From positions 1 to 25,410 of the forward strand of contig JAEHDT010000197.1 of the NCBI GenBank assembly GCA_016880225.1: 25,410 nucleotides of DNA, written 5' to 3'. Below the pieces are notes generated by a model. That model ran no database searches, was not told the DNA's origin, and saw only the letters and a list, made by a program, of their open reading frames with translations. Every line of letters starts with the position of its first letter. The stretch's first letter is position 1. The stretch comes from Gemmatimonadota bacterium. Lineage in GTDB: Bacteria; Gemmatimonadota; Gemmatimonadetes; Gemmatimonadales; GWC2-71-9. Of this stretch, positions 1,102 through 25,410 are shown in pieces. The position numbers were made by a program, and so were the translations under genes.

Positions 1102-3374
1102 CGCGGGTCGCCCTCGCTCCCACACCGTTCCAAGGCGACCCACCGATCACGCCGCAGCTGGTCCGCGAGCACAACCTCACCGACGCCGAATACGCGCGCA
1201 TCACCGCGCTGCTCGGGCGGACGCCGACGTTCGCCGAGCTGGGGGTGTTTTCCGCCCTGTGGAGCGAGCACTGCTCGTACAAACACTCCCGGCTCGTCCT
1301 GAAAACCTTCCCCACCACGGGAGCCCAGGTGGTCCAGGGGCCGGGCGAGAACGCGGGCGTGCTGCGGCTCCCCGACGGCTGGGCGGTGGCCTTCAAGATC
1401 GAGTCGCACAATCACCCGTCGGCGGTCGAGCCCTATCAAGGCGCGGCGACGGGCGTCGGCGGCATCCTGCGCGACGTCTTCACGATGGGCGCCCGTCCCG
1501 TGGCGCTCCTCAACAGCCTGCGCTTCGGCCCGCTCGACGACGCCCGTAACCGCTACCTGTGCGCGGGCGTGGTGAAGGGCGTTGGCGACTACGGCAACTG
1601 CGTCGGCGTTCCCACGCTGGGCGGCGAAGTGGACTTCGCCTCCGGCTACAGCGGCAACCCGCTCGTCAACGCCATGTGCGTCGGAGTCCTCAAGGAGCGC
1701 GACCTGATCACGGCCGCGGCGCACGGCGTCGGGAACGTGCTGCTGGTGGTGGGATCGCGCACCGGCCGGGACGGCATCCACGGGGCGTCGTTCGCGTCCG
1801 AAGAGCTGACGCACGAGAGCGAGCGGCGGCGGCCGCAGGTTCAGGTGGGCGACCCGTTCACCGAGAAGCTGCTGCTCGAGGCCAGTCTCGAACTGATCGC
1901 TTCCGGTCACATCGTCGCGATCCAGGATATGGGGGCCGCCGGCCTCACGTCGTCCTCGGCCGAGATGGCCGCGCGGGGCGGCGTCGGCGTCGAGATCGAC
2001 CTGTCGCTCGTTCCCACGCGCGAGCCGGGGATGACGCCGTACGAGATCCTCCTGTCCGAGTCGCAGGAGCGCATGCTGGTCGTGGCGAAGGCGGACCGGG
2101 TGGCGGCCTTGCAGGCGATCGCCGCGAAATGGGAGCTCACGGCGACGCCGATCGGCCGCGTGACGGACGACGGTATGTATCGGGCGACGTGGCGGGAGCA
2201 GGTCGTCGTCCTGATCCCGGGCCGGCGGCTGATCGAGGATTGCCCGGTGTACGATCCGGAATCCCGGGAAGACGAAGCGACCATCCGCCTGCGGTCGGCA
2301 CGTCCCGCTGGCTCGGTCCCGCCCCCGGATGCCGGCGAGGCGCTGCTCGCGTTGCTCGATCATCCGCCCGTCGCCTCGAAGCGCTGGGTCTACGAGCAGT
2401 ACGACTCGACGGTGCAGGCGGGCACCGTGATCGGACCGGGCGGCGACGCGGGAGTGATCCGGATTCGGGGCGCCGAGTTCGGGATCGCGGTCACCACGGA
2501 CTGCAATGCGCGCTACGTCCGGCTCGACCCGTACGAAGGAGGCAAGGCCGCCGTGGCGGAGGCCGCGCGTAACATCGCCTGCACCGGCGCGCGGCCGCTC
2601 GGCATCACGGACTGCCTGAACTTCGGCAATCCCGAGCGCCCGGCGGTGTTCCACCAGTTCCGGGAAGCGTGCCGGGGCATCGCCGACGCCTGCCGGGCGC
2701 TCGACACGCCGGTGACGGGCGGGAACGTCTCCTTCTACAACGAGAGTCCGGTGGGCGCCGTGGATCCCACCCCGGTGGTGGGCATGGTCGGGCTGCTGTC
2801 GCACGTGGAGCGCGCCGTGCCGAGCCATGCGCGCGCTCCGGCTGACGTTGTCCTCGTGCTGGGCGAGACGCGGGCCGAGCTGGGCGCATCGCAGCTGTGG
2901 GAGGCGGTGTACCGGTTCGTGGGCGGGCAGCCGCCGCGCGTCGATCTCGAGGCCGAGCGCCGCCTGGTGGACTATCTCGTGACCGCGGCCGGGCGGGGCT
3001 TGCTCCGGTCCGCACACGACTGCTCGCAGGGTGGCCTCGGCGTGGCGCTCGCGGAGGTCGCGATGGGCGGCGCGTACGACGAGACCGGGTTCGGCTTGGA
3101 GATCGACCTCTCGCCATACGCCCCCGGGCTCGCGGCGCTCGACGTGTTGTTCAGCGAATCGCACGGTCGCGCCGTCGTCACCTGCCGCCCCGAGCGCGCT
3201 GCGGCGGTGGCGGCCTTGGCGCAGGAGCTCGGCGTGCCCGCGTGGCGCGTCGGTGTGGTGGGTGAGCGCGGCGACGCGTTCCGAGTGCACCTGCGCGACG
3301 CGCTCGTGGAGCACCCCGTGGACCGGCTGCGCCAGGTATATTTCTCGAGTCTCGCGCGACGCATGGGAGATTGA
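1098..3374 (+). CDS. purL: Phosphoribosylformylglycinamidine synthase subunit PurL (small type)
   Basis: Motifs [64 protein letters not shown] and [10 protein letters not shown]; 758 aa. Confidence 0.98.
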
Positions 3375-18162: not shown

Positions 18163-19803
18163 GTGACCCCACAGAAGCTGATTCGATCGCTGCGCGTACC
18201 CTTCAGCGGTCCCACAACAACCGGGAGCCGGGCCAGCGGCCTCCCCCCCGACCTGCTGCGCGAGGCGTCCCGACGATTGGGGCTACTCGCGCTTGTCACG
18301 ATGGGTTTGGCGGTCATCGACCTCGCCCTCGGGCAGATGCTGTTCCCGCAGCTCCACGTCGCGTGGCCGGCCTGGCTCACCCCGGTTGTCGTGGGCATCG
18401 CGCTCGTGTCGCTGGGCGTGTTCCTGTACACACGCCGCAGCCGCGGTCGTCCAGAATCCTTCATAACGCTCGGGCTCGCCTACGAGGTGGCCGTGGCCGC
18501 CGCCCTTGGATTCATCAACCACCTGCTGGCTCCGCCCGAAGGGTTGACGGCCGGGCCGACTCTATCACGGATCAGTTTCATCGTGCTGATCTTCCCGGCG
18601 TTCGTGCCGAGTACCCCACGCGCGACGCTCGTGACCGCGCTGATCGCGGCATCGATGGATCCGCTCGCGATGGCCACGGTGAGCGCCGTGCGGCACTTGG
18701 GCGTGCCCGCAGGCCATCTGCTGTGGATGCACATCACGAATTACTTCAGCGTCGGGGTTGCGGTGGTGATCTCCCACATCATCACGCGTCTGGGGCGTGA
18801 GGTGCGCGATGCGCGCGACCTGGGAAGCTACCGGCTGGGAGAGCTGCTCGGCCGGGGCGGCATGGGCGAGGTATACGTGGCGCACCATCGCATGCTGGCC
18901 CGGCCGGCGGCCATCAAGCTCATTCGACCCGAGAAGCTCGAAGGGGAAGGCGGCGATCAAGCCCTGCGCGTCGTGCAACGCTTCAAGCGGGAAGCGCAGG
19001 CGGCGGCCAGCTTGCGCTCGCCGCACACGATCGAGCTGTACGACTTCGGGGAGACCGACGACGGTACGCTGTACTTCGTGATGGAGCTGCTCGACGGCAT
19101 CGACCTTGATTCCTTCGTCGACCGCTTCGGGCCGATGCCTCCGGCTCGTGCGGTGCACGTGCTACGCCAGGCATGCGATTCGCTCGCCGAAGCGCACACC
19201 CGCGGGCTGATTCATCGCGACGTGAAGCCCGCGAACGTTCACCTCTGCCGCATGGGCCTGCTACACGATTTCGTGAAGGTGCTGGATTTCGGAATCGTGA
19301 AGTCGCAACACAACCTGGCAACCGGACCGTCGATCGCGACCGCGGCCGATCGCATGATCGGAACACCGGCCTTCATGCCGCCGGAGATGGCACTCGGGGG
19401 CGTCGTGGACGGGCGGGCGGACATCTACGGGCTCGGCTGCCTAGGCTACTGGCTCCTCACGGGTGAGCTGGTATTCGACGGCGCGACCACGTACGAAGTC
19501 GTCGCGCAGCACATCAACGCCGTGCCCGTGCCACCATCCACCCGGAGCGGCCTGCCGATTCCCGTGACGCTCGATGACGTCATCCTCGACTGCCTCGCCA
19601 AGGACCCGGAGCGCCGACCGCCGGACGGGCTCGAGCTGTCTCGCCGCCTTGCCACCTCCGTGCTGCACGAGCCGTGGTCCGAGCAGGATGCGGAACGCTG
19701 GTGGCGGACCCACCTCCCACGTCCGCGTGGCGAGCCGCCCGCAGCGGCGAGCGAACAGGTGCTCGCTACCCGGCCCTCGCGAAGGATCATTCCTTGGGTC
19801 TGA
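18163..19803 (+). CDS. Hanks-type Ser/Thr protein kinase with an N-terminal multi-pass membrane domain
   Basis: About six hydrophobic segments precede GRGGMGEVY, AAIK, HRDVKPAN, DFG, GTPAFMPPE and DIYGLG. Confidence 0.93.
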   Translation: MTPQKLIRSLRVPFSGPTTTGSRASGLPPDLLREASRRLGLLALVTMGLAVIDLALGQMLFPQLHVAWPAWLTPVVVGIALVSLGVFLYTRRSRGRPESFITLGLAYEVAVAAALGFINHLLAPPEGLTAGPTLSRISFIVLIFPAFVPSTPRATLVTALIAASMDPLAMATVSAVRHLGVPAGHLLWMHITNYFSVGVAVVISHIITRLGREVRDARDLGSYRLGELLGRGGMGEVYVAHHRMLARPAAIKLIRPEKLEGEGGDQALRVVQRFKREAQAAASLRSPHTIELYDFGETDDGTLYFVMELLDGIDLDSFVDRFGPMPPARAVHVLRQACDSLAEAHTRGLIHRDVKPANVHLCRMGLLHDFVKVLDFGIVKSQHNLATGPSIATAADRMIGTPAFMPPEMALGGVVDGRADIYGLGCLGYWLLTGELVFDGATTYEVVAQHINAVPVPPSTRSGLPIPVTLDDVILDCLAKDPERRPPDGLELSRRLATSVLHEPWSEQDAERWWRTHLPRPRGEPPAAASEQVLATRPSRRIIPWV

Positions 19804-22420
19804 GCAGGTCCCGGTACGGCGCGTAGTCGCGCAGCGACTCGAACGCGAGATCGGCGTGCAGCCCGAAGGCCTGCGGGTACCCCCGGGTGAACGCGTCCCG
19901 GAGCAAGGCCACGGCGGCGTCGCGCTCGCCCAGCAACGCATGGATGCGCGCCCGCCACACAGCGGGCCGGCCGAAGACGTACGGCCGCTGCACGCGCGCG
20001 AGCGTCTGGTCCACGCGCAGGGCCTGGTCTCGGTTCCCCTGGCGCGCGGCGACTGCGCCCAGGTACCCGAGGTAGTCCAACGGGTCCCACATGTCGCCCA
20101 TCACGGCGACGCTCGCGGGCGAGTCGCTCCGGCCGGGTTCCCCCCGTGCCGCCAGGCGCTCGAATTCGCGTTGCGCGTCCGCGAGCCGTCCCGCCAGGTA
20201 GTCCACGAGCGCCACACGAACCTGGTGCGCCTCGGTTGCCGCTTCCGCCGGCGGACGCGCCGCCAGCCAGTCGCGAGCCTGCGCGAGCGTCGTGCCGCCC
20301 TCCGCGGCGTGGCCGTGTGCCCGCAGCTCAAGGGCGGCCAGCAGCAGCACCTCCGCCGGCGTCCACCCGTGCATGGGAGGAAAGTTCGCGCTCACGGCGA
20401 CCCGGCGGCTCATCTCCTCCGTTCGGCCGAGCGCCGCGAGGGCCCGCACCTCGGTGGCGAGAATCTCCAGATTGCCGGGGAACCGGCGCACACCTTCGAG
20501 CGCCTGCTTCAGCTCGCGGTTGTGGTCGCCCACCAGGTGCAAGGCGCTAGTCAGGTTGTACCAGTACACCCACCAGCCGCGTGTGAAGCCGCGGTCCGGG
20601 CCGAGGGACTCGAGCGCGTCCACGGCCTCGCGCGGACGATTGAGCGCCATGGCGTCTTCCGCGACCAGGTACAGCGCTTCAGAGCCGGGCGCGAGATTCG
20701 CCATTGCGCGCGCCGCCCGGAGCGCCTCCACCCCATCGCCACGGCACGTCGCCAGCACCCATGCCAGGTACGAGCGGTCGAGCGGGGCGAACCGGTCGGC
20801 GTGCCGCTCCAGGGCGTGACCGATGGACTCCGCTGCGGCCCACTGCCCCACATTCATGTGAGCGTTCGCGGCGAAGATCAGCGGCAGCCGGAACGTCGTG
20901 TCCACGGCCGCCGCGTGCTCGAAGTGCGCGATCGCCCCCGCCATGTCGAATAGGACGAACCGGTCCAACCCCTCGATGAATTCCTGATATGCCTGGAAGT
21001 TCGGCGGCTGGCTCGCCATCGTCGCCCAGCGGCTGAGCCGGGAGTCGAACAGCGTCGCCAGCGCGGCCATGACGCGCTGGCGCAGCGTCTCGACCGCGCC
21101 GAGCGGCTGAGCGAGCGGCCCGGCGACCGGCTCGAGCGCCCGCAGGAGCTTCCCGTCCGCCGCCGCCGAGATCTGGACCTGGAAGCGTACGCTGTCCGCC
21201 TGGCGGTAGTAGGCGCCCGACACGACCGTTCCGGCGCCGGTCTCCCGGCCCAGGGCCCGGAGTCCCGCCGCGTCGAGGTAGCCGGGAGCGTGTTCTCCCG
21301 ACGCGATAATCACGGACATCGAAGGGACCACTTCGACGAGACCCGTTTGCGCGAGCCCCTGTGTCACCCAGTCGGCCGCCATGTGACCGAGGTTGTCGAG
21401 CGACGTGTCCCCCGTACGGTTCTCGAGCACGGCCACGACCACCCGGCGCTCGATCAGGCCGGACGCCGGACGCCGCACCGCCAGGACCACGGCGACGGCG
21501 GCTGCGACCACGACCCCGCCCGCGAGCGCGAAGCGGCGGCCGCGGCGGCCCGCGAACAGGCTGCGCGTCGGCACGCTCGTGCGATGGGCCGGTCCCCCGA
21601 GCGCCGCCGCGAACTCCGCCGCCGATGGAAACCGGTCGTCGGGCCGCGGCGCGAGCGCCCGCGAGACGGCGTGCTTGACGGCCCGGACGACCCCGGTTTG
21701 CGCGCCCCGCAGCCCGCGGCTCGACTCGAGCGCCGCCCAGTTGTGGACCCCGCGGTCCACTTCGCGCCGCACCGGCGTTTCGCCCGCCAGCATCTCGAAC
21801 AGCACGCACCCGAGGCTGTAGACGTCCGTACGGGCGTCGAGCTCCATGCTGCCCATCGCCTGCTCGGGGCTCATGTAGCCCGGCGAGCCGATGGCCTGGC
21901 CGGTCTGCGTGAGGGTCATGGTGCCGGCGGCGCTGATCGCGCGCGCGATGCCGAAGTCGGCGACGATCGCGTGTTCCCCCGAAAGGAGGATGTTCTCGGG
22001 TTTGATGTCGCGGTGGATGATCCCCTGTCCGTGCGCGAAGGCGAGCGCGTCCGCCACGTCGCGTGCGATGTGGACCGCGTCGTCGAGCGGCAGCCTCTTC
22101 TGCCGGATCAAGCGATGCCGCAGCGACTCCCCCTCGACGTACGGCATGACGTAGTAGAAGAGGCCGCCGGCTTCTCCGGCCGAGAAGATCGGCACGATGT
22201 GGGGATGGCTGAGGTTCGACGAAAGGTCCACTTCGCGGATGAACCGCTCCCGCAGGAGACGCGTGGATAGCTCCGGGTCGAGCACCTTGATTGCCACCCG
22301 GCGATGCGGATGCTGCTCCACCGCCAGGTACACCCGGGCCATCCCGCCCGCCCCGATCTCGCGTGCGACGTCGTAGCGGGGTGCGAGAGCCTCGCGCAAG
22401 GAGTCGAGGACGTCGAGCAT
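19787..22420 (-). CDS. Hanks-type Ser/Thr kinase + single TM + TolB-N/FlgO-like domain + TPR-like repeats
   Basis: Motifs GAGGMARVY, VAIK, HRDIKPEN, DFG and GSPGYMSPE are followed by a TM segment (FALAGGVVVAAAVAVVLAV), VVVAVLENRTGD...WVTQGL and helical repeats. The gene overlaps the neighbouring kinase by 17 nt at the 3' ends. Confidence 0.93.
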   Translation of the reverse strand: MLDVLDSLREALAPRYDVAREIGAGGMARVYLAVEQHPHRRVAIKVLDPELSTRLLRERFIREVDLSSNLSHPHIVPIFSAGEAGGLFYYVMPYVEGESLRHRLIRQKRLPLDDAVHIARDVADALAFAHGQGIIHRDIKPENILLSGEHAIVADFGIARAISAAGTMTLTQTGQAIGSPGYMSPEQAMGSMELDARTDVYSLGCVLFEMLAGETPVRREVDRGVHNWAALESSRGLRGAQTGVVRAVKHAVSRALAPRPDDRFPSAAEFAAALGGPAHRTSVPTRSLFAGRRGRRFALAGGVVVAAAVAVVLAVRRPASGLIERRVVVAVLENRTGDTSLDNLGHMAADWVTQGLAQTGLVEVVPSMSVIIASGEHAPGYLDAAGLRALGRETGAGTVVSGAYYRQADSVRFQVQISAAADGKLLRALEPVAGPLAQPLGAVETLRQRVMAALATLFDSRLSRWATMASQPPNFQAYQEFIEGLDRFVLFDMAGAIAHFEHAAAVDTTFRLPLIFAANAHMNVGQWAAAESIGHALERHADRFAPLDRSYLAWVLATCRGDGVEALRAARAMANLAPGSEALYLVAEDAMALNRPREAVDALESLGPDRGFTRGWWVYWYNLTSALHLVGDHNRELKQALEGVRRFPGNLEILATEVRALAALGRTEEMSRRVAVSANFPPMHGWTPAEVLLLAALELRAHGHAAEGGTTLAQARDWLAARPPAEAATEAHQVRVALVDYLAGRLADAQREFERLAARGEPGRSDSPASVAVMGDMWDPLDYLGYLGAVAARQGNRDQALRVDQTLARVQRPYVFGRPAVWRARIHALLGERDAAVALLRDAFTRGYPQAFGLHADLAFESLRDYAPYRDLLRPKE

Positions 22421-22426
22421 GCGCGC

Positions 22427-22435
22427 AAGTTAGCA
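22427..22435 (-). promoter_or_regulatory. Extended -10 element (TG-C-TAACTT) 6 nt before the kinase ATG, suggesting a leaderless promoter
   Basis: The minus strand reads GACTGCTAACTTGCGCGC-ATG with no SD. The -10 hexamer is identical to that of ssrA. Confidence 0.6.
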
Positions 22436-22543
22436 GTCACGGCCCGGCCAGGCGAGCGAGATCTTGCCTACTGGCCGATACGCGTCCGCGCGCTACAATT
22501 CCTCAACACAACGCCGGGGGGTCGTCTGCGGAGCTCTCCCTAC

Positions 22544-23461
22544 GTGCGCCTGGCGGCGTACTATCTCGTACTCGGTATCGCCGTGTGGCTCCTGATCGCG
22601 GCGTTTCCTGCGATCCCCCAGCTGCTCGAGCGCTTCCGGGAGATCTCGGTGCTCGGCCTCGCCGCCGCGCGCCGCGGACGCGACCTCGAGGAGGTCGTGG
22701 GGCCCGCCGGCCAGGTCCTGTCGCAGGGCCAGTGGGCTTTCGTGACCCTGCTGTCGATGCTCACCGCGCTGCTGCTGGTGCTCCCGGTCGCCCGAGTGTA
22801 CATGATCACCAAGCAGCACTCGGGTTACGACCAGTCCGTCGTCCAGACGGTCATCATCCTGCCGATGACGGTGGCCGGCACCGTCATTCTCGTGCAGAAC
22901 AGTCTGGCCCTGGCATTTGCGCTCGCCGCGATCGTGGCGGCGGTGCGATTCCGCAACACGCTCAAGGACACGAAGGATGCCGTGTACATTTTCCTGGCGC
23001 TTGCGGTCGGCGTCGCCGCGGGCGTGTTCGCGCCGACGGTCGCCGCGGTGATGTCCGTCGTGTTCAACGTCGTGGTCCTGAGTCTTTGGCACTTCAACGT
23101 CGGCAACATCTACGCCGATCGCCTCGGCGCCGAGCGCGCCGGGCGCCTGCAACCCCACCTCGAGCGCAACGCGCGGCAGGACAAGAAGCCGTTCACCGGA
23201 GCGTTATTGATCCGCGCCGCCCGGATCGAGCCCGTGCAGCGCGCGGCGGAAACGTTGCTCGAAGAGCGCGTCAAGCGCTGGAAGCTCGCGGAAGTTGTTC
23301 CCTCCGATGGCGGGACGTCCGTGCTCGAGTACCTCATCAGGAGCAAGGACCCGGAGGTCGGAGCCGCGCTGATCGATGCCCTCCGAACCAGGGCTGATCC
23401 GGACATCGTGGCCGTGGAGTTTCGCTCGTTGCAGGGGCTGAAGCCCGGGGAGCGGCCGTGA
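22544..23461 (+). CDS. DUF4956 family membrane protein (MgtC-like TM region plus C-terminal ACT-like domain)
   Basis: Signature VQNSLALAFALAAIVAAVRFRNTLKDTKDAVYIFLALAVGVAAG. The start is uncertain: GTG 22544 was chosen (GGAG upstream, TACAAT at 22494-22499) because the ORF-track start at 22304 overlaps the opposite-strand kinase. Confidence 0.85.
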   Translation: MRLAAYYLVLGIAVWLLIAAFPAIPQLLERFREISVLGLAAARRGRDLEEVVGPAGQVLSQGQWAFVTLLSMLTALLLVLPVARVYMITKQHSGYDQSVVQTVIILPMTVAGTVILVQNSLALAFALAAIVAAVRFRNTLKDTKDAVYIFLALAVGVAAGVFAPTVAAVMSVVFNVVVLSLWHFNVGNIYADRLGAERAGRLQPHLERNARQDKKPFTGALLIRAARIEPVQRAAETLLEERVKRWKLAEVVPSDGGTSVLEYLIRSKDPEVGAALIDALRTRADPDIVAVEFRSLQGLKPGERP

Positions 23462-24621
23462 ACCCGCGGGCGTCGCCGCGCGGCGCCCTCGTCGTGTTGC
23501 TGTGGGTCGCAACGGCGTGTGGCTCCGCGCGAGCGCTGGACACAGCCGCGCCAGGGGTCGCGCTGGCGCCGGCGTCGCAGATCGATGTGACGCTCTTTCT
23601 GGTCGGTGATGCGGGCGTCCCCGCGGCGCCGCCCGACTCGGAGCCGGTGCTCGTCGCCCTGCGCGCAGCGGCCGGCGCCGTCCCGAGCCCCGTGATCGTG
23701 TTTCTTGGCGACAACGTCTATCCCCGCGGGATGCCAGATTCGGGCGCCGCAGGCAGGGCCGAAGCGGAGCGCAGGCTCTCGGCACAGCTCGCGGTGCTGC
23801 ACGCCACTGGGGCGCGTGGGCTGTTCGTCCCCGGCAATCACGATTGGGACCGGGAGGGGCCGGGAGGCTGGGAGGCCGTGCGGCGGGAGGGGCGATTCAT
23901 CGCTCAGAGCGGAGGGTCTCGCGTGGCGCTGCTGCCGAGAGACGGCTGCCCCGGCCCCGCCATCGTGGATGTGGGGGCCGCCGTCCGCCTCGTCGCGCTC
24001 GATACGCAATGGTGGCTGCATGGCGCGGCGAAGCCGCAGCATCCCGGCTCGTCGTGCCCCGCCGACTCCGAGGGCGAGGTGATCGATTCGCTCCGGGCTG
24101 CGCTCCGGACAGCAGGGACGCGCGCGGTGGTCGTCGTTGCCCACCATCCGTTGCTCTCCGGGGGACCACACGGCGGCCACTTCGGCTGGCAGGACCACGT
24201 GTTTCCGCTGCGGAACCTCAAGCCGTGGCTGTGGCTTCCCCTCCCGCTCGTCGGCTCGGCATACCCGATCGCCCGCGAGAACGGCATCTCGAGTCAGGAC
24301 GCCTCGAGCACCGCGTACCGGTGGATGCGCGCTGCGCTGGACAGTGCCTTCGCCGCTCGGCCCCCGCTCATCTACGCGGCGGGACATGACCACGCCCTCC
24401 AAGTGATTGCGGGAACCAGCGCTCGCTATGAGATCGTGAGCGGGGCCGGGACCTTCGGGCATCACAGCGGCGTCGCCGCGCTCGACGGCACGCGGTTCGC
24501 GCAGAGCGCCAGCGGCTTCATGCGAGTCGACGTGCTGCACGACGGCCGCGCCCGCCTGGACGTGACGGTCGTCGACGCAGGCGGCAAGGGGGCGGAGGCC
24601 TTCGGGTTGTGGCTCAACTGA
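23458..24621 (+). CDS. Exported calcineurin-like metallophosphoesterase of purple-acid-phosphatase type, probable lipoprotein
   Basis: All five PAP-type motifs are present: GDAG (DxG), GDNVY (GDxxY), GNHD, VAHH and GHDH. The N-terminal signal ends in VATA|C. The GTG start overlaps the upstream TGA. Confidence 0.92.
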   Translation: MNPRASPRGALVVLLWVATACGSARALDTAAPGVALAPASQIDVTLFLVGDAGVPAAPPDSEPVLVALRAAAGAVPSPVIVFLGDNVYPRGMPDSGAAGRAEAERRLSAQLAVLHATGARGLFVPGNHDWDREGPGGWEAVRREGRFIAQSGGSRVALLPRDGCPGPAIVDVGAAVRLVALDTQWWLHGAAKPQHPGSSCPADSEGEVIDSLRAALRTAGTRAVVVVAHHPLLSGGPHGGHFGWQDHVFPLRNLKPWLWLPLPLVGSAYPIARENGISSQDASSTAYRWMRAALDSAFAARPPLIYAAGHDHALQVIAGTSARYEIVSGAGTFGHHSGVAALDGTRFAQSASGFMRVDVLHDGRARLDVTVVDAGGKGAEAFGLWLN

Positions 24622-25410
24622 GCCGGCTCTTTGCGATCGGCGCCGCGCTCGCGGTGGTGCTTGCGCCGCATGGGGTCGCCGGCCAGACGACCGGTCCGCC
24701 GGGCCCCCCGCCTGCGCGCCAGACGGTGGCGGCGGGGATGCACTACCGCGCGGGCTGGCTCCATCGCCTACTGCTCGGCGCCCACTATCGCGACCTCTGG
24801 GCCACGCCCGTCGAGGTCGAGGTGCTGGATCTCTCCGGGTTCGCCGGCGGACTGACGCCGATGAGCTGCGGCGGCCGTCGCCAGACCAAGTCGCTCCGCT
24901 TCCAGGGAGGAGACGGGCGGCAGTACGTGTTCCGCTCCGTGGACAAGGATCCCACCCTGGCGCTCCCCCCGGAGCTGCGGGCCACGTTCGCCCGCGATCT
25001 CATCCAGGACCAGATCAGCTCGGCGCACCCCGGCGGCCCGCTCGTCGTGGCGCCGCTGCTGGATGCGGCGGGCGTGCTGCACGCCGAGCCGCGTCTCGCC
25101 CTCCTCCCCGACGACCCACGGCTCGGCCGCGTCGACTGCGTGCGCCCCGGCTTCAAGCTAGGAATGATCGAGGAGCGCCCCACCGAGCCTCCCGACAACG
25201 ATATGGGGTTCGCGGGTGCCGCCGAGCTGGCCGGGACCAGCAGGCTGTTCGAGCATCTGGAGCACGACTCGCGGCACCGGGTCGACTCGCGCGCATTCCT
25301 CGCCGCCCGGTTGATGGATGTCTACATCGGCGACTGGGACCGACACCACGATCAGTGGCGCTGGGCGCGTTTCGACTCGGGCGCCGTGCACACGTGGCGA
25401 CCCATCCCGC
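24609..25410 (+). CDS. Exported protein with an atypical-kinase-like domain, probably the N-terminal part of an Omp85/BamA-TamA-family protein (partial, runs off the window)
   Basis: Not in the ORF track because there is no stop in the window. Frame +3 is open for 267 codons from GTG 24609 (GGAGG upstream): MAQLSRLFAIGAALAVVLAPHGVAGQ...HYRDLWATPV...GGRRQTKSLRF...YVFRSVDKDP...QDQISSAHP...GMIEERP...RLMDVYIGDWDRHHDQWRW...WRPIP. Confidence 0.85.
   Translation, partial: MAQLSRLFAIGAALAVVLAPHGVAGQTTGPPGPPPARQTVAAGMHYRAGWLHRLLLGAHYRDLWATPVEVEVLDLSGFAGGLTPMSCGGRRQTKSLRFQGGDGRQYVFRSVDKDPTLALPPELRATFARDLIQDQISSAHPGGPLVVAPLLDAAGVLHAEPRLALLPDDPRLGRVDCVRPGFKLGMIEERPTEPPDNDMGFAGAAELAGTSRLFEHLEHDSRHRVDSRAFLAARLMDVYIGDWDRHHDQWRWARFDSGAVHTWRPIP

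Follow-up and report, generated by a model that had tools for sequence, protein, structure and literature searches.

The window analysed here is a stretch of 25,410 nucleotides that makes up a complete contig (C9; JAEHDT010000197.1) of the genome assembly of a Gemmatimonadota bacterium (GCA_016880225.1), which is 65% complete and is divided into 307 contigs. Towards its 3' end three genes overlap end to start: a gene for a DUF4956 membrane protein, a gene for a metallophosphoesterase, and an open reading frame (ORF) on the + strand that is the target gene of this work (24609..25410; 24609..25409 in the ORF listing). The target begins with GTG, its start overlaps the stop codon of the upstream gene (24619-24621), and it is still open after 267 codons at the 3' end of the contig. 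An earlier reading of the DNA letters, hereafter the original prediction, had proposed a cryptic extracytoplasmic kinase domain in this ORF. Here we describe the complete gene and its context, and we propose that its product, which is predicted to join a kinase fold to an Omp85 barrel, is a phosphotransferase tethered to the outer membrane.

The final 127 bases of the contig are identical to the end of a second contig (C96), on the opposite strand, and the window shares this end with no other contig. The reading frame stays open across the overlap and continues on the minus strand of C96 (2336..441), which gives a protein of 856 amino acids (aa). A homologue of the same length, P0002 (856 aa), is colinear with this protein over the junction and is 95% identical to the part encoded in the window and 97% identical to the part encoded on C96, which is matched by 2457 proteins at E≤1e-3 (8000 candidates scored). 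Furthermore, the N-termini of 12 aligned full-length homologues match the window ORF from residue 1, and the 13 rows of the alignment are 62-100% identical to it. A contig of 3511 bases from run X1 agrees with C96 1981-2336 at every position and extends 3155 bases beyond the end of C96; X1 may be the source sample, and this contig therefore gives no independent support for the junction. A joint in one X1 contig that skips 1690 was disregarded, one of its sides being only 21 letters long. Run X2 covers the stretch only partially. Contigs from the RNA libraries of runs X15 and X16 align to parts of the target with 95-99% identity, a weak hint that the gene is expressed, with DNA carry-over being possible.

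Many long spurious ORFs overlap this region in other frames, and the target itself might be a spurious or degenerate frame at the end of a high-GC contig. The thousands of length-matched homologues, the 97%-identical full-length protein, the ribosome-binding site upstream of the start and the very confident folds of both the N-region and the C-region models speak against such an origin. Its probability is close to nil, and we ruled it out on the homologues, their colinear N-termini and the confident model of the N-region.

Because the window gene is split over two contigs, the N-region was modelled with AlphaFold2 on the equivalent 506-aa region of the homologue at locus L008, using an alignment of 150 sequences; 411 of the 505 mapped residues (81%) are identical to the window gene. 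The model has a mean predicted local distance difference test (pLDDT) score of 94.8 and a predicted TM-score (pTM) of 0.94. Foldseek returned 27 matches from the PDB at E≤1e-3, and all among the matches listed are kinases or kinase-like proteins, led by CtkA (3akk, E 1.8e-5) and CotH (8e-5) and followed by HipA, PI4KIIalpha, WaaP and Fam20C. An independent structural search with VIA-align against 48,161 representative chains found PI4KIIalpha (Z 14.8, root-mean-square deviation (rmsd) 4.9, 263 aligned, model residues 32-346), CotH (Z 14.3, rmsd 4.2, 252 aligned), CtkA (Z 13.1) and HipA (Z 11.5), and, lower down, PIKKs, actin-fragmin kinase, Fam20, MavQ and Rio. The 50 matches listed from this search are all kinase-fold proteins and cover model residues ~30-348. 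Since the two methods agree and no other fold occurs in their match lists, we regard the assignment of the modelled N-region to a bilobal protein-kinase-like (PKL) fold as firm; it is the fold that the original prediction had expected.

The five motifs on which that expectation was based are all found in the translation: GGRRQTKSLRF (aa 88-98), YVFRSVDK (106-113), LIQDQIS (131-137), GMIEERP (185-191) and GDWDRHHDQW (241-250). The kinase elements assigned to them agree with the order of secondary structure in the model, which is the canonical one: strand 82-88, the GGRRQTK loop, strand 95-100, strand 105-110 followed by K113, helix 127-138 with D134, strand 184-189, the hinge ERP, helix 227-240, the loop at 241-250, a beta-hairpin (250-257, 260-267) and finally RDRDQAF. 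An RDxD-like Asp motif had been anticipated after RPIP, and RDRDQAF is indeed what comes next once the sequence is extended into C96; its D269 and D271 lie directly after the hairpin at aa 250-267. The catalytic loop, which the original prediction had likened to the DRH motif of PI3/PI4-kinase-like, HipA-like and FAM20-like kinases, reads DRHxDQ instead of the DRHxxN of PI3/PI4-kinases, and no PF00454 (PI3/PI4-kinase) match was found for the window ORF or for 55 members of the family.

Over the same 150 sequences, which reach down to 36% identity, the residues W64, G81, R109, K113, L231, R234, D242, D244, R245, W252, D269, D271, G279, P349, R367 and R434 (window numbering) are invariant. By its position in the model, D244 would be the equivalent of the catalytic-base Asp, Q249 (+5) would replace the Mg-binding Asn, and D269 (+25) would correspond to the DFG Asp. 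R109 lies in beta3 and K113 three residues after it, and either of them could fill the role of the VAIK Lys. The putative catalytic set would thus comprise R109/K113 (beta3), D134 (helix-C-like), D244-R-H-x-x-Q249 (loop) and D269-x-D271 (DFG position). Because residues that never vary sit at these catalytic positions, we read the PKL domain as a probable active phosphotransferase tethered to the outer membrane.

The C-region was modelled on the window gene's own last 472 residues, taken from C96, with 119 sequences (pLDDT 96.2). An all-beta domain (aa 385-496) is followed by 16 long strands, and TVRGF, whose R and G are nearly invariant in the alignment, is located between strands 11 and 12 of the barrel; we take the (V/I)RG(F/Y) motif to be the mark of Omp85 loop 6. 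Foldseek matched the barrel to Sam50, BamA and TamA at E 2e-11 to 4e-9, with a TM-score of 0.77 against the TamA barrel alone. At the sequence level the C96 part matches ShlB (23.7 bits, cutoff 22.7) and Omp85 (E 0.021) in Pfam, and Omp85_fam NF047779 in NCBIfam (E 1.2e-13, below the family cutoff), and most of the listed homologues carry a precomputed PF01103 assignment. The models contain no beta-alpha-alpha-beta-beta unit, the 130 residues before the barrel are all-beta, and no POTRA match was found in Pfam. According to the model, the C-terminus is a 16-strand barrel of the Omp85 superfamily without POTRA domains, and Omp85 subfamilies without POTRA are known from the available part of a survey of the superfamily (PMC4104836). 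The all-beta linker (aa 385-496, on C96; L003 ~1524-1859, minus strand) carries repeated HGDDD, GGGGDD and DDRG, which are GGxGxD-like, and gives a weak profile match to a designed immunoglobulin (Ig) domain (8bl3, E 0.028). GGxGxD repeats are typical of calcium-binding extracellular proteins.

The predicted order of the full-length protein would therefore run from a Sec signal (aa 1-25) through the PKL domain (~67-384) and the linker (~385-496) to the barrel (~518-852). Stand-alone forms of 535-567 aa, ending just before the barrel, were found at 6 loci, and all 6 carry a lipoprotein signal with a lipobox, whereas the fusion forms have ordinary signal peptides. As fusions combine a signal peptide with a barrel and stand-alone forms have lipoprotein signals, the kinase-fold module is, to judge from these sequences, always exported and membrane-tethered. 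This supports the extracytoplasmic location given in the original prediction, in which neither the Omp85 barrel nor the polyphosphate context described below was foreseen.

By analogy with the POTRA domains of BamA and with PlpD, the PKL domain would most likely lie on the periplasmic side. It might instead be a surface passenger of its own barrel, in the manner of type V secretion, and would then be a protein kinase similar to CotH or CtkA that uses extracellular adenosine triphosphate (ATP) to phosphorylate surface or foreign proteins. This arrangement would suit the presence of CotH and CtkA among the three closest structures, the GGxGxD-like repeats of the linker, and a genuine CotH protein that adjoins the target in one locus (L046). 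It fits poorly with the lack of a POTRA domain and of a TpsA-like partner, with a barrel resembling those of BamA, TamA and Sam50, and with stand-alone forms that are lipoproteins and not secreted; moreover, PlpD, the best-studied fusion of an enzyme to Omp85, keeps its enzyme domain in the periplasm, according to the available part of PMC11116518. We consider surface exposure of this kind quite improbable. The CotH protein of L046 (951-4232, 1094 aa), encoded just upstream of the target homologue, also contains lamin-tail, chitobiase-C and purple-acid-phosphatase N-terminal domains.

Table 1. Coordinates of the target gene, its elements and its neighbours in the window
Feature	Position	Strand	Basis and remarks
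DUF4956 multi-pass membrane protein, first gene of the cluster	22304..23461	+	PF16316 E 2.3e-11, hydrophobic segments; true start may be further downstream
Metallophosphoesterase, 387 aa, predicted exported	23458..24621	+	Lipobox-like ..ATAC; motifs GDAG, GDNVY, GNHD, VVAHH, GHDH; stop overlaps target start
Ribosome-binding site GGAGG	24594..24598	+	10 nt upstream of GTG; read from the sequence
Target gene, 5' part (aa 1-267 of 856)	24609..25410	+	Signal peptide, kinase-fold N-lobe, hinge and catalytic loop (predicted); ORF list, read-through, colinear P0002
Sec-type signal peptide, aa 1-25 (...VLAPHGVAG|Q)	24609..24683	+	Hydrophobic segment, also in homologues; putative cleavage site
Gly-rich loop GGRRQTK (aa 88-94), between beta1 and beta2	24870..24890	+	Model; G88, G89, Q92 and T93 nearly invariant
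beta3 YVFRSV, then DK	24921..24947	+	R109 and K113 invariant; candidate ATP-phosphate-binding basic residues
Helix-C-like helix (aa 127-138)	24987..25022	+	Model and alignment; D134 nearly invariant
beta5 and hinge LGMIEERP (aa 184-191)	25158..25181	+	G185, E188 and P191 nearly invariant
Catalytic loop GDWDRHHDQW (aa 241-250), directly after alphaE-like helix	25329..25358	+	D242, D244 and R245 invariant; H246, Q249 and W250 nearly so

The genes around the target bear on its function. The 440 bases that follow the target stop on C96 code for aa 1-140 of a PPK1 homologue, the remainder of which is found on contig C233, and the N-terminus of this protein is a CYTH domain (E 7e-7, above cutoff), so that the order of the cluster in the host genome is DUF4956, phosphoesterase, target and CYTH-PPK1. 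We take the five motifs of the phosphoesterase to be the purple-acid-phosphatase (PAP) set; searches with the window protein gave no PDB and no NCBIfam match, and its homologues near the target in other loci have clear PF00149 matches. The CYTH-like N-terminal part of PPK1 occurs a second time elsewhere in the window's own genome (contig C262:102-641, minus strand; 41% identity over aa 4-193).

Linkage was determined by tblastn in 76 loci, which are the best among at least 567 and are in many cases cut by contig ends. The phosphoesterase is near the target in 38 of them, DUF4956 in 33, PPK1 in 33, and 59 loci have one or more of the three. The arrangement varies: PPK1 follows the target in L004-L030 and precedes it in L037 and L075, the order is target, DUF4956, PPK1 in L036 and L039, and the genes are on opposite strands in L057 and L077. 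The stand-alone form is followed by a Metallophos gene and then by a separate Omp85 gene in L043 and L059, with variants in L038, L055, L064 and L069, and in P0128 and P0257 Metallophos, the kinase-like region and Omp85 are found in one chain. Because the two are found adjacent, split or fused, the PKL domain would be expected to work with the PAP-type metallophosphoesterase lipoprotein encoded next door, which in some lineages would be part of the same protein. Likewise, as linkage recurs in different arrangements and phyla, the target is probably tied functionally to polyphosphate metabolism.

A more specific form of the proposed phosphotransferase would be a PI4KII-like lipid or glycolipid kinase. 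Its substrate would be the head group of a phospholipid, of lipopolysaccharide or of another glycolipid on the inner side of the outer membrane bilayer (its inner leaflet), and the phosphoesterase would reverse the mark. PI4KIIalpha being the top structural match (Z 14.8), a domain that a barrel or a lipid anchor keeps at the membrane, and PAP2 and His_Phos genes flanking the target in L077 are all in line with it. However, the Z scores of PI4KIIalpha, CotH and CtkA differ by less than 2 units, so that lipid and protein kinases are not told apart by the fold, and no lipid-synthesis genes recur in the neighbourhood, so that we hold this form to be possible and rather unlikely.

Other genes were observed near the cluster. 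In the window, an 877-aa Hanks-type Ser/Thr kinase with TPR repeats (19787-22420, minus strand) is divergent from the DUF4956 gene. Loci L004, L010, L011 and L014 have a Pkinase protein of 871-900 aa on the opposite strand, upstream of the cluster (of these, L004 and L011 were scanned for the DUF4956 gene itself); this divergent kinase may be a conserved regulator of the cluster. A second Pkinase-domain protein of 546 aa (18163-19803, plus strand) adjoins it. Further upstream, an 833-aa ORF (15526-18027, minus strand) matches both ABC_sub_bind and OEP (outer-membrane efflux protein). Either it is a fusion of an unusual kind, or the ORF has been called too long in a high-GC frame. In other loci, a gene for an MgtE magnesium transporter is downstream of the kinase-like/Metallophos/Omp85 cluster (L043, L055, L059 and L069, all of them loci with the short form). 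Two more Omp85 proteins (L057:3878-5734, 619 aa, and L057:8787-11414, 876 aa) flank the target homologue of L057, with PPK1 next on the opposite strand, and may represent a paralogue array. Seven of the 76 loci, of Ignavibacteria type (L040, L047, L049, L052, L053, L075 and L077), have near the target a protein of ~405 aa that combines an HD with a PycTM (Pycsar effector-like) domain, and scans of the flanks showed several proteins with adenylate/guanylate cyclase domains beside the target in four of these loci (L040, L047, L049 and L052).

The family is very large. At E≤1e-3 a profile of the N-region matches 3853 representative clusters, and at E≤1e-30 it still matches 1985. When one genome was scanned for each species, at least 567 loci were confirmed, among which Gemmatimonadota, Bacteroidota, Ignavibacteriota, Chlorobi and KSB1 are the phyla named. 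In a sample of the phylum, the module was present in 35 of 121 genomes (34 of the 115 of high quality; the 35 include the unpublished G057) and is therefore an accessory gene. Some of these genomes have 2-4 module matches, and one genome of the same order (G084, contig C32:296244-300525) has two tandem copies. CotH is present in 6 of the 121 genomes and was not found in the genome of the window, which is 65% complete.

Taken together, these observations lead us to consider it reasonably probable that the target is an active phosphotransferase tethered to the outer membrane, which works with the phosphoesterase and is tied to polyphosphate metabolism; the gene structure, the fold, the conserved residues, the barrel and the gene linkage are supported directly by the data, and catalysis, topology, substrate and phosphate donor are what we infer in this proposal. 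Several points weigh against it. The structural matches are distant (8-13% identity in the quoted matches, VIA-align rmsd 4-5 A), with Foldseek TM-scores by query length of 0.16-0.32 among matches at E≤1e-3, and the model of the N-region is that of the L008 homologue, not of the window's own split gene. The residue equivalences come from the order of secondary structure in that model, with no residue-level superposition, and the topology comes from analogy only. The window phosphoesterase scores below the cutoff for Pfam Metallophos (E 0.0011, 19.9 bits against 21.5), many of the 76 loci are close kin, so that the linkage counts are not independent, and the triple fusions P0128 and P0257 could be artefacts of gene calling or frameshifts.

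Sequence searches, furthermore, did not detect a kinase. Pfam gave no family for the window ORF and, at E≤10, none that was consistent among 55 members, with no match to CotH (PF08757) in the window ORF, the C96 part or the 55 members, and none to the HipA-like families (PF07804, PF20613) in the window ORF or the 55 members. NCBIfam gave no match for the N-region, and HMMER profile searches of the PDB with two alignments (E≤10) returned no kinase, the chance matches being dynein, pseudoperoxidase and a designed Ig. Alignment of the N-region by hhalign with a 4-sequence CotH profile was collinear in its motifs and not significant (E 0.11), with GDWD over CotH (N/S)WD and PIPRDRDQAF over IPWDxN..F. 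A 23-sequence CotH profile gave a spurious 20-column match (E 0.12); the extra homologues in it are all ≥60% identical to the query and add little diversity. In the ESM Atlas, the nearest clusters with a Pfam assignment are CotH, HipA_2 and HipA_C, at 0.76, which we treat as a lead only.

Some of this evidence would suit a kinase-fold domain that is not catalytic and that binds a nucleotide, polyphosphate or a phosphorylated envelope molecule in order to gate or load the Omp85 barrel, for instance when polyphosphate or a phosphorylated product is moved across the outer membrane. In that case the only enzyme would be the phosphoesterase. The domain has no sequence similarity to active kinases, and the canonical Mg-binding Asn is Gln (Q249) in the target. 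PKL scaffolds can be co-opted for non-catalytic roles, as described for SrfA-N in the available part of a preprint (10.64898/2026.09.18.752743). On the other hand, D242, D244, R245, D269, D271, R109 and K113 do not vary in 150 sequences, which is the pattern typical of enzymes. Pseudokinases usually lose residues of the catalytic loop and of DFG. Furthermore, we know of no ATP pool or ATP source in the periplasm, which favours the non-catalytic domain and leaves the phosphate donor of an active enzyme unexplained. On the whole we find a non-catalytic role unlikely, and we retain the active phosphotransferase as the preferred interpretation, of which the phosphate donor, the Gln at the Mg site, the topology and the kinship among the loci are the weakest points.

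This interpretation can be extended to the whole cluster, which points to a hitherto undescribed system of phosphate transfer in the cell envelope of bacteria. In a more speculative form, the cluster would be a trans-envelope polyphosphate pathway. CYTH-PPK1 would make polyphosphate at the inner membrane, and the DUF4956 protein would pass it into the periplasm; the membrane domain of VTC passes polyphosphate into yeast vacuoles. The kinase-fold enzyme would then mark an envelope lipid, glycan or protein using polyphosphate instead of ATP, and the PAP-type phosphoesterase would erase or trim the mark. We give this complete pathway a low probability, distinctly unlikely as it stands, but, if true, it would explain how a kinase works in an ATP-free compartment and would provide a function for the CotH/VTC/DUF4956 cluster of Gram-positive bacteria.

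To our knowledge, kinase-fold enzymes outside the bacterial cytoplasm are very few, and their phosphate donor is an open problem. The proteins described here form a very large family (the 3853 representative clusters) without a Pfam model, and they represent a new architecture for the Omp85 superfamily and a new family for the kinase-like superfamily. Gemmatimonadota include phosphate-accumulating bacteria, and for this reason the system may matter for environmental phosphorus cycling.

In the literature we found no published description of the target family. Among the papers listed, none joins Omp85 with 'kinase-like' or CotH, and only a review of Acinetobacter virulence contains both polyphosphate kinase and Omp85; DUF4956 occurs in 5 papers, none of them listed as naming it in title or abstract. 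Comparison with known systems therefore has to be made part by part. PI4KIIalpha (PDB 4PLA/4HND), the best structural match, is a membrane-tethered enzyme, as the target would be, but it is eukaryotic, cytosolic and ATP-dependent, and shares 8% identity with the target, which has no PF00454 match. Its catalytic-loop and DFG-equivalent motifs presumably resemble DRHxDQW and RDRDQAF. CtkA of H. pylori (JHP0940) and the HipA-type Ser/Thr kinases also match the target in structure, but they are soluble, without a barrel and without a sequence match.

SEAE1, a PIK-like PKL family of Bacteroidota, is like the target a family recognized by structure only and has a phosphatase gene nearby, according to the available part of its description (10.64898/2026.09.18.752743). 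Its residues D216/N221/D241/D243 have the same +5, +25 and D-x-D spacing as D244/Q249/D269/D271 of the target. In contrast, SEAE1 is cytoplasmic or non-secreted, has no barrel, has Asn in place of Gln and a PAP2 phosphatase as its neighbour, and its Lys-to-Asp distance is 76 against 131 in the target, the two families being compared by description only. The available part of this preprint makes no mention of Omp85, CotH or polyphosphate.

On the side of the barrel, PlpD and the 'Metallo' Omp85 subfamily share with the target an enzyme domain N-terminal to a 16-strand Omp85 barrel, and PF00149, to which the partner gene of the target belongs, is found in the 'Metallo' subfamily, as listed in the available part of the 2014 Omp85 survey (PMC4104836). 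The same part of that survey lists PF00149-Omp85 and no kinase among its ten subfamilies, and the word 'kinase' occurs in it 0 times, so that the target differs from the listed fusions in having a kinase fold as its enzyme, and also in having no POTRA. Type Vd proteins are PlpD-like, with patatin, POTRA and Omp85; the target has no patatin domain and no POTRA and is not of this type.

CotH (PF08757; B. cereus, PDB 5JD9/5JDA) is like the target in having a PKL fold and in working outside the cytoplasm. Both have a (D/N)-W-D catalytic Asp and an I-P-x-D-x-(D/N) second Asp, 25 apart in both alignments. CotH of B. subtilis is catalytically dead when it carries D228Q or D251A, which places the essential Asps 23 apart (PMC7821199, available part), and NFD and PWD are likewise 23 apart in the B. 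cereus chain 5jd9. The target differs in its lack of a PF08757 match, its DRHxDQ loop and its fusion to Omp85. The likeness extends to the gene clusters. CotH belongs, in Gram-positive bacteria, to a conserved set of accessory genes together with DUF4956 and a polyphosphate polymerase, according to the available part of PMC7112168; both clusters thus contain a kinase fold, a triphosphate-tunnel domain and DUF4956, although that of the target has CYTH-PPK1 and not a VTC-type polymerase, and in addition a metallophosphoesterase and an outer-membrane anchor. By analogy, the recurrence of a kinase fold, a triphosphate-tunnel enzyme and DUF4956 in the target cluster and in Gram-positive CotH clusters suggests that there may be a general link between polyphosphate and phosphorylation in the cell envelope.

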